Assembly (NCBI GenBank): GCA_029856435.1 | Contig: JAHQXB010000100.1 | Coordinates: forward strand, 1 to 40,287 | Direction of reading: 5' to 3' | DNA length: 40,287 nucleotides | Origin: Candidatus Jordarchaeia archaeon | GTDB lineage: Archaea > Asgardarchaeota > Jordiarchaeia > Jordiarchaeales > Jordiarchaeaceae | Shown: piece after piece, positions 21,087 to 23,042 of the stretch | How the letters are laid out: the number at the start of each line of letters is the position of its first letter | Position numbering within the stretch: position 1 is the stretch's first letter | The notes under the pieces: model-generated | The model's input: the letters and a program-made list of their open reading frames with translations, nothing else | What the model was told of the DNA's origin: nothing | The model's database searches: none | Made by a program: the position numbers and the translations under genes

Positions 21087-21539
21087 CTACTTTTTCTTTC
21101 TCCTTACACCCACGGTTTGACCTTTACGTCCCGTAGTTTTGGTGTGCTGTCCTCTTACCTTGAGTCCTAAGGCGTGACGTATACCCCTGTAACTCTTCAT
21201 TTTTCTCATATCATCAATGTCTGTTTTAATGGCTAAAGTGAGATCAGAACCAGTGAGATGTAAATATTCACCAGAACTTACGTCCTTCTGTCGATTAACC
21301 ATCCATTTAGGAATACCATATTTTACGGGGTTGGCCAAAACCTCCTCAATTTTTCTAACATCTTGTTCCGAAATAAACCCCATTCTAATGTTAGGATCAA
21401 GCCCGACTACCCGTATTATGGACTCCGCTAACCTAATGCCCACTCCTTTAATTCCAGTCAAAGCATAGGCTAGCTTTTTTGAACCGTCCAAATCTGTACC
21501 AGCAACTCGAACAAGATAACGGTACTCTTCCGACGACAA
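21087..21539 (-). CDS. rps13: 30S ribosomal protein S13 (uS13)
   Basis: LTGIKGVG and YRGIRHALGLKVRGQHTKTTGR motifs. Confidence 0.98.
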   Translation of the reverse strand: MSSEEYRYLVRVAGTDLDGSKKLAYALTGIKGVGIRLAESIIRVVGLDPNIRMGFISEQDVRKIEEVLANPVKYGIPKWMVNRQKDVSSGEYLHLTGSDLTLAIKTDIDDMRKMKSYRGIRHALGLKVRGQHTKTTGRKGQTVGVRRKKK

Positions 21540-21765
21540 TTGTAAACACTCCTTATTAGGGAATCAAAAACAACAAAACACCAAATAAACTTTACGTACA
21601 GCGTTTAACAGCAGAAAATAGTAAAACCACTAAAAAAATAAATATATCGCCCATTTTCACAGAAAACAAATAAATACCCTAAGAACTTTAAACTAAAAGG
21701 TAGCTAAAATTCACAAAAATTGAGAAAAATGTTAAAATGAAGATGCCGGGGTAACCAAGTGGATC

Positions 21766-21783
21766 ACGTTACAGGCGTACAAA
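21766..21783 (+). other. tRNA intron 1 in the D-loop (18-19 nt; boundary uncertain)
   Basis: Removal is needed to restore the ACC/GGT D stem; best BHB-like fold has central TGGA/TACA (one mismatch) and inner CG/CG. Confidence 0.6.
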
Positions 21784-21793
21784 AACGGTGCAG

Positions 21794-21818
21794 ATACTTA
21801 TTAATGTAGTTAGCACAA
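21794..21818 (+). other. tRNA intron 2 at position 29/30 (25 nt)
   Basis: Central helix GTGC/GCAC, bulges AG^A and AA^G; removal gives CAGGC. Confidence 0.85.
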
Positions 21819-21826
21819 GCCTGGAG

Positions 21827-21838
21827 AATACACTAGTA
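21827..21838 (+). other. tRNA intron 3 at canonical position 37/38 (12 nt)
   Basis: Central helix CTGG/CTAG, bulges AG^A and TA^A; no inner helix. Confidence 0.85.
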
Positions 21839-21872
21839 AGCCTGTGGTCCGAAAGGATCGCGCGAGTTCGAA

Positions 21873-21900
21873 AGGAAAATACTTATTATTTACCCGAGTG
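21873..21900 (+). other. tRNA intron 4 at position 59/60 in the T-loop (28 nt)
   Basis: Outer helix GCGAG/CTCGC, central TTCG/CGAG, bulges AA^A and TG^T; removal restores TTCGAAT. Confidence 0.9.
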
Positions 21901-21991
21901 TCTCGCCCCCGGCGCCAATAACTACTCCTTTCAGTGGCCGGAACATATTTTGACTTCCTAAAACTAGTTAGGAATAACTGGATTCGGATGC

Positions 21992-23042
21992 TTATCCCTC
22001 AGTTTCCTCGCTTCTATCATGTTTTTTCCACATAGGAGGGTAGGTTCCCGGCTCCATTAAGACACGGTTTATTTCCACCACAACCCCATGGTTTGAGGCG
22101 TACATTTCTTGACTGCTCATTTTTGCTATTCCCAATGCTACAGCTTCATTTTTAAGCGTGAAGATTGAAACTAGATCACCAGCTTTTATCTCACTCTCTA
22201 GTTTAACTATTCCAGGAGCGGTTAGATTTGCGCCGTGACAAAGAGAATCTACGGCAGAGTCTCGTATAAAAATTTTAGGTATATGCTCCAGTGCATTTTC
22301 CATTGGTTGGATAATTTTTCTAAGGAATGATTCGTCTCCATCTTCCTTCCAGAAATGGTAAGCATCAACGAGGTCGTATAGGTTTGTTATAGTATCTTCT
22401 TTAAAAGGCCCTGTTCGGGTGCGTCTAAGTTCTCTCATGTGGGCGCCACAACCTAAAACCTCACCAATGTCGTGGCAGAGCTTTCTTATGTAGGTGCCGG
22501 CCTCACAACCAACACGCAAGAGCCCATTTCTACCCTCTAATTCATTTAGTTCAATATAATATATTTCCCTAATCCTCACCCTCCTTTTAACCGAGGAGCG
22601 AAGCGGTGGACGTTGATAAATTTGTCCCGCAAACTCGTTTACAACTTCTCTCAATCTACTTTCAGACACATCCCCGTGCAGCCGAATTACACAAACATAC
22701 TCTTTCCCAGCCGGAAGAAGAGCTTGAACTACTTTAGTTGCAGATTCTAAAGCCACAGGAAGCACACCAGTGACTTTGGGATTTCACTGCCCCCTATGCT
22801 TCTGAAGGAAGCTCTAGTGTCCCAGCGTGGCCTGCCTTCTTAACATTTAAGATTTTTTTGACCCAGCTAACCACTTCATGCGAGGTGGGACCCGGAGGCT
22901 TGTCAACATTGACTATCCCGTTTTTTATATAATCTTCTATTTGACGTTCGTTGGGTGGAGTTCCATACTCCGGACTAGTGACCGCGTTAGCCTTCTGGAG
23001 TATCTCTCTTTTCTTGTCGCTGGGTAAAAAACGCTCGACCAT
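21992..23042 (-). CDS. cbf5: H/ACA RNP pseudouridine synthase Cbf5 (TruB family), intron-containing: join(23042..22814, 22782..21992), 339 aa
   Basis: Spliced junction restores [15 protein letters not shown]; [12 protein letters not shown] and [12 protein letters not shown] motifs; C-terminal PUA domain. Confidence 0.95.
22783..22813 (-). other. 31-nt BHB mRNA intron in cbf5
   Basis: GGGA CACU AG^A GCUUCCU-UCAGAAGCAU-AGGGGGC AGUG AA^A UCCC: canonical BHB; frameshifting and contains UAG. Confidence 0.93.

Follow-up and report, generated by a model that had tools for sequence, protein, structure and literature searches.

The window analyzed here is a 40,287-nt stretch of DNA in which rps13 (21087–21539, minus strand) and cbf5 (21992–22765, minus strand) are separated by a 450-nt gap, and this gap holds a tRNA-Ser(GGA) gene on the plus strand, at positions 21745–21917. 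The gene is 173 nt long and consists of five exons and four inserts (20, 25, 12, and 28 nt), and no open reading frame of at least 60 aa overlaps it. Its 5′ end reads GCCGGGG and its 3′ end CCCCGGC-G-CCA, giving an acceptor stem GCCGGGG/CCCCGGC, a discriminator G, and an encoded CCA. The predicted features are as follows, with a caret marking each cut within a bulge:

21704–21711, plus strand: TATA-like box CTAAAATT, 41 to 34 nt 5′ of the mature end; candidate promoter.
21745–21764, plus strand: exon 1; acceptor 5′ strand, U8 and A9, D-stem 5′ strand ACC, and D-loop AAGTGGAT; invariant in four close species.
21765–21784 (best guess), plus strand: intron 1; D-loop, at about 20a/21, 20 nt; central helix GTGG/ACAA, inner helix ACG(TT)/(GG)CGT.
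21785–21793, plus strand: exon 2, 9 nt; A21 and C22, D-stem 3′ strand GGT, G26, and C27 A28 G29.
21794–21818, plus strand: intron 2; 29/30, 25 nt; helix GTGC/GCAC (4/4 Watson–Crick), bulges AG^A and AA^G.
21819–21826, plus strand: exon 3, 8 nt; G30 and C31, then the anticodon loop C U GGA G37.
21827–21838, plus strand: intron 3; canonical 37/38, 12 nt; CTGG/CTAG (three Watson–Crick pairs and one G·U), bulges AG^A and TA^A.
21839–21872, plus strand: exon 4, 34 nt; A38, anticodon-stem 3′ strand, 17-nt variable arm, T-stem 5′ strand, and T-loop TTCGAA.
21873–21900, plus strand: intron 4; 59/60 in the T-loop, 28 nt; full hBHBh′, central helix TTCG/CGAG (4/4), bulges AA^A and TG^T.
21901–21917, plus strand: exon 5, 17 nt; U60, T-stem 3′ strand, acceptor 3′ strand, discriminator G73, and encoded CCA.

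The TATA-like box is kept in the close orthologues (L002–L004), and elsewhere in the genome several tRNA genes are preceded by A/T-rich elements at approximately the same distance (e.g., CTAAAAT or TTTAAA). We note also that the neighboring cbf5 (aCbf5 pseudouridine synthase, 21992–23042, minus strand) lies in two frames, with DKCLD at 22794–23042 and TruB/PUA at 21992–22765, and that taking out 31 nt (22783–22813, minus strand) restores GTL-D-P-KVTG. This 31-nt insert has a bulge-helix-bulge (BHB) helix of its own, CACT/AGTG, with 4/4 Watson–Crick pairs and bulges AG^A and AA^A.

Joining 21745–21764, 21785–21793, 21819–21826, 21839–21872, and 21901–21917 yields an 88-nt sequence, which ARAGORN calls as tRNA-Ser(gga), drawing it with a long variable arm, a D stem of 3 bp, and the T-loop TTCGAAT, and for which the minimum-energy structure obtained with RNAfold is a class II cloverleaf (−40.5 kcal/mol). 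In the 88-mer, the acceptor stem has 7 bp and the T stem 5 bp, the D-loop has G18 and G19, U33 lies in an anticodon loop of 7 nt, and the T-loop fits TTCRA. On the serine side, it has the anticodon GGA, G73 before CCA, and a variable arm of 17 nt whose stem is 4 bp long. The latter features serve as SerRS identity elements. When the DNA is left unspliced, ARAGORN finds no tRNA across the whole window, and Rfam reports no tRNA at the gathering score in the window and no match to a tRNA model at E ≤ 10 on 21650–22000. The sole Rfam match at E ≤ 10, to GlsR27, scores 16.9 bits against a cut-off of 100 and was discarded as noise. Thus, the first-pass annotation, which had read these 173 nt as a tRNA-Ser(GGA) with four introns that gives a clean cloverleaf only after excision, and which had warned that standard tRNA finders might miss or mis-call it, is borne out on both points.

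In the BHB rule, the central helix is formed between the four nucleotides of the exon that precede the 5′ bulge and the four nucleotides of the intron that precede the 3′ bulge, and the bulges are 3 nt long and are each cut after the second nucleotide (PMC2738675; bioRxiv 10.64898/2026.10.13.758758, methods). Introns 2, 3, and 4 carry the 4-bp central helix that is required for EndA at exactly the predicted cuts, such that the helices GTGC/GCAC, CTGG/CTAG, and TTCG/CGAG originally proposed at 29/30, 37/38, and 59/60 are exact, with 4/4 pairs each. All four introns also have a flanking helix of at least 2 bp, namely an h′ of 3–5 bp in intron 1, an h′ of 2 bp in intron 2, an h of 2 bp in intron 3 (which has no inner helix), and, in intron 4, an h of 5 bp and an h′ of at least 2 bp. 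In this last case, the outer helix is the 5-bp T stem, and the inner helix comprises GG..CC plus AAAUA/UAUUU. When introns 2–4 were shuffled, 4/4 pairing at the fixed cut arose in just 1.1–2.5% of trials, and the unconstrained minimum-energy fold of the 173-nt precursor shows the full hBHBh′ of intron 4 as well as the intron 2 helix. A blind BHB scan (G·U allowed) returned ~25 motifs per sequence, which is too permissive to have discriminating power alone, and we therefore relied instead on boundaries fixed by orthologue comparison and on the shuffles. The spliced anticodon arm was looked for in metagenome contigs and not found, a result that carries little weight since the mature tRNA is shorter than typical contigs. 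Separately, introns 2 and 4 have a 10-mer, ATACTTATTA, in common, which was considered as a trace of intron copying and rejected: it is found in this genome only, the corresponding stretches differ in L002–L004, and the match is presumably chance in A/T-rich loops.

The Ser(GGA) gene is present in all five other species of the genus, and a pattern search of 300 genomes of the phylum matched it only in six genomes, all of this genus. Three of the congeners have genes that are 94–97% identical to that of the window, with four inserts each, and in the close species intron 3 is variable and 11–12 nt long. The genes of G005 (the SRVP Freyarchaeia complete genome, a single 3.6-Mb contig from the same genus as the host) and G002 have the D-loop, 29/30, and 37/38 inserts and a continuous T arm, GTGGGTTCAAATCCCAC, with no T-loop intron; L056 likewise has a continuous T arm and no T-loop intron. 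Scanning metagenome contigs with a gapped pattern yielded 51 loci, and the resulting orthologue set, from genomes and metagenomes together, comprises 35 distinct Ser(GGA) genes. The compact orthologues in this set are ~105 nt long, with the 37/38 intron alone and an 11-nt D-loop, TAGCCTGGTAG. Among the 35 distinct genes, the T-loop intron is limited to the clade of the window and one other clade (the L032 type, which also has four introns). The 29/30 intron has 4/4 pairs in all 29 of the distinct orthologues that have one, and the pair involving tRNA position 25 covaries, being T-A in GTGC/GCAC, C-G in GCGC/GCGT, A-T in GAGC/GCTC, and G-C in GGGC/GCCT. We note that several metagenomic genes (L024, L035, L045, L037, L039, L073, and others) have a D-loop intron elsewhere, after TAG, at ~15/16, of 19–36 nt; genes of this type also carry the 29/30 and 37/38 introns and have no match among the 300 genomes of the phylum.

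Of the 88 exon columns, just one varies across the four close species, versus 14 of the 85 columns in the introns (Fisher p = 2.5e-4). The lone exon change, in exon 4, turns a G·U into an A-U pair in the variable-arm stem, and the acceptor, D, and T stems show compensatory pair changes between clades. Near-invariant exons, diverging introns, and compensatory stems are together the pattern expected if the gene works and its inserts are spliced out.

The assembly, a draft of 181 contigs, is 97.8% complete, and the searches for a further copy cover its assembled DNA. Within this draft, mature-sequence BLAST, ARAGORN, and Rfam all fail to find a second Ser(GGA) gene, compact or otherwise, which bears on the question raised in the first-pass annotation as to whether this is the sole copy; the BLAST matches are the exons of the gene itself and the 3′ halves of other tRNAs. 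A genome-wide anticodon-loop scan for GGA tRNAs gave 3914 matches and was uninformative, and the BLAST, ARAGORN, and Rfam negatives were used instead. The other type II Ser genes seen are TGA (C77:1797–1967, minus strand) and CGA (C176:3523–3720, minus strand). The former is 171 nt long and has introns in the D-loop (strict, GTGG/CCAC) and at 29/30 and 59/60, with none at 37/38, so that three of the four intron sites of the Ser(GGA) gene are occupied here too.

Taking the genome as a whole, ARAGORN reports 6 tRNA genes and the Rfam model gives 12 matches, while an acceptor and T-arm scan reveals many genes of 100–208 nt; ARAGORN and the Rfam tRNA model miss most tRNA genes of this genome, as the Ser(GGA) gene confirms. 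More than 12 of its tRNA genes have a 24–34-nt insert at 59/60 with similar ends (TTCGAA, then [TA]GGA ... CCCGAG.., then T), examples being C110:175–340, C155:673–823, and C94:6986–7131 (all plus strand). The ends of these inserts are forced by pairing with the invariant T-loop, and therefore their similarity does not require copying between genes. At C39:633–840 (plus strand) lies a 208-nt gene that, by eye, looks like a tRNA-Trp(CCA) with several inserts, one of them long and with C-box-like GATGATGA and D-box-like CTGA words, which is reminiscent, again by eye, of the box C/D guide that the tRNA-Trp intron of euryarchaea contains.

The D-loop insert differs from the other three in its central helix, in which the four positions are G·A, U-A, G-C, and G·A, that is, two Watson–Crick pairs and two G·A mismatches, short of the four base pairs of the BHB definition. 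Its inner helix (3–5 bp) nevertheless adjoins the cut sites in the correct BHB register. At the same D-loop site, strict BHB motifs are found in relatives, namely GTGG/CCGC in G005, GTGG/CCAC in G002, GCGG/CCGC in L056, and GCGG/CCGT in L032, and these strict helices vary as T-A, T·G, and C-G across the four genes. Cutting at the homologous positions leaves a mature D-loop AAGTGGATAC, which is one base off that of L032, AAGCGGATAC, and keeps A21. We placed intron 1 at 21765–21784 on account of this homology with the strict-BHB orthologues, the L032-like D-loop, and the retention of A21. The earlier description of this intron as relaxed therefore stands (2/4 pairs), whereas its previously proposed ends, 21766–21784, give way to 21765–21784 (20 nt). 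Judging from its absence in all compact relatives, the D-loop insert is a real insertion; we infer its excision and its exact ends from homology and from the need for a normal D-loop, and the ends may be off by 1–3 nt. At most boundaries, BHB-like matches of the relaxed kind turn up by chance alone (bioRxiv 10.64898/2026.10.13.758758). As an aside, intron 1 holds CAGGC (21772–21776), which is identical to the mature anticodon-stem 5′ strand, and in the minimum-energy fold of the precursor this region is paired with GCCUG of exon 3. The match is probably incidental, since three close species have TAGGC and it is absent from the G005 and G002 introns.

Three other readings of the locus need to be weighed against one in which all four introns are removed at the cuts listed above. 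That the gene is invisible to ARAGORN and Rfam, and that one of its splicing motifs is degenerate, could be taken to mean that it is a decaying pseudogene with accumulated insertions, neither expressed nor needed. However, nearly all tRNA genes of this genome look alike in this respect, and a decaying gene is difficult to reconcile with exons that are almost invariant while the introns diverge, or with compensatory stem changes between clades. In archaea, a G34 tRNA is needed for the reading of UCU and UCC, and no other Ser(GGA) gene was found in the assembly. Taken together, these observations leave the pseudogene reading scarcely credible.

A less radical option is that three introns are spliced and the D-loop insert is retained, its motif having been lost in the lineage, such that the mature D-loop is ~30 nt long. 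In favor of retention, GTGG/ACAA has just two pairs, versus 4/4 in G005, G002, L056, L032, and the Ser(TGA) paralogue of the same genome, and only 1 of the 20 insert sites varies in the four species, which could mean a role in the mature RNA. Yet the inner helix sits in the exact BHB register at the homologous cuts, G·A accounts for both mismatches, a purine–purine mismatch also occurs in the helix of at least one further D-loop intron of the genome (by eye), and the spliced D-loop matches that of L032 with A21 kept; furthermore, we know of no tRNA with a ~30-nt D-loop of this sort. We thus regard retention as improbable. There is somewhat more room for a version in which four introns are removed with other D-loop cuts, either at 21766–21784 or with the 3′ cut after 21782 (GTGG/GTAC), the latter giving a D-loop 1–2 nt longer. 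The GTGG/GTAC register has 3/4 pairs compared to 2/4 in the homologous register, and D-loops of 9 to 11 nt are all present among the orthologues. On the other hand, this register puts the inner helix out of frame, and it is the homologous register that gives the D-loop length and A21 of L032, which is the nearest strict-BHB four-intron orthologue. Such alternative cuts are unlikely, although less so than retention of the insert.

Taking all of this into account, we consider it highly likely that 21745–21917 is a functional tRNA-Ser(GGA) gene, the only one found in this Freyarchaeia-group Asgard archaeon, the four introns of which would be removed by EndA and the exons of which would be joined by RtcB. 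The genome encodes two PF01974 proteins (on C104 and C64) for the former activity and one PF01139 RtcB (on C93) as the ligase. The C104 EndA (192 aa) keeps the active-site Tyr, His, and Lys, and its best match is 3P1Z_B (E = 3e-45), the catalytic subunit in the heterotetramer of Aeropyrum pernix, a match that covers the GQPL..KP loop region as well, while the C64 EndA (197 aa) has Thr in place of the M. jannaschii catalytic His. This suggests that EndA is an (αβ)2 enzyme of the broad-specificity kind. The RtcB gene (C93:302–1636, minus strand) has one in-frame TGA inside the Pfam match.

In the pathway that we propose, transcription would give a precursor of ~173 nt or more, EndA would cut this precursor at four bulge-helix-bulge sites, and RtcB would rejoin exons of 20, 9, 8, 34, and 17 nt into the 88-nt tRNA. 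Splicing is probably stepwise, by cut-and-join, because the intron 2 helix uses G24 and U25 of the D stem, because intron 2 interrupts the anticodon stem, which serves intron 3 as its outer helix, and because exons 2 and 3, at just 9 and 8 nt, have little to hold them. An essential decoder gene would then require eight cuts and four ligations, with exons down to 8 nt. We would also raise, more tentatively and as a possibility that is still somewhat doubtful, that the D-loop intron has lost its canonical central helix and is near-invariant in this state in at least four species, yet must still be removed. If intron 1 is indeed spliced, the Freyarchaeial EndA would act on a motif that falls outside the definitions published so far (hBHBh′, HBh′, and hBH), and it may do so by recognizing the inner helix together with the spacing of the bulges. 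The strict and degenerate versions of one and the same D-loop intron provide a natural substrate for testing the specificity range of EndA.

A point of comparison is available in the published SRVP Freyarchaeia genome, where the orthologue match starts at C1:1482398. In Supplementary Data 4 of Valentin-Alvarado et al. 2024 (PMC11291895), tRNA #6 is a Ser GGA at 1482398–1482542 with introns at 1482446–1482471 and 1482480–1482491. These two correspond to introns 2 and 3 as placed by the BHB rule (gene positions 49–74 and 83–94), and as the tRNAscan-SE boundaries coincide with the BHB-rule cuts, they provide independent agreement for both. The same interval, C1:1482398–1482542, also holds an insert of 20 nt in the D-loop, and this insert has a BHB of the strict type (GTGG/CCGC; bulges TA^A and AA^C). 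By our reading of the sequence, the published annotation leaves this strict-BHB insert in, and the intron count of this gene would rise from two to three; D-arm inserts are those that tRNAscan-SE misses (bioRxiv 10.64898/2026.10.13.758758). The gene of the window differs from this published Ser(GGA) gene in that it has a T-loop intron, which the latter does not, so that species within a single genus differ in whether they carry this intron.

The first-pass annotation had viewed the gene in the context of Thermoproteales and had judged four introns to be at or beyond the known range. Neither view holds. The host belongs to the Freyarchaeia (Jordarchaeia) group within the Asgard archaea and is congeneric with the SRVP Freyarchaeia genome. 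To our knowledge, Thermoproteales tRNA genes reach three introns per gene. In the genus of the host, however, four-intron tRNAs are already in print (Arg-TCT, Ile2-CAT, and Leu-GAG), as they are in Atabeyarchaeia (PMC11291895). The same paper gives 92–95% of tRNA genes as interrupted, and up to five inserts in one gene are reported for the lineage (bioRxiv 10.64898/2026.10.13.758758). The four-intron Ser(GGA) gene is therefore a new example of a kind already published for the genus and is ordinary for the lineage. It resembles the multi-intron tRNAs of Freyarchaeia and Atabeyarchaeia (PMC11291895) in its small BHB introns, non-canonical sites, four-intron organization, and D-arm insert. The multi-intron tRNAs of Thermoproteales (Sugahara 2008 and Fujishima 2010, as cited in the literature) are also similar with respect to non-canonical positions such as 29/30 and 59/60, the relaxed BHB, and the predicted crenarchaeal-type two-subunit EndA, but the present gene belongs to a different phylum (Asgard) and a more heavily interrupted gene set, with 2.2 inserts per gene compared to 1.54 in Pyrobaculum calidifontis (bioRxiv 10.64898/2026.10.13.758758).
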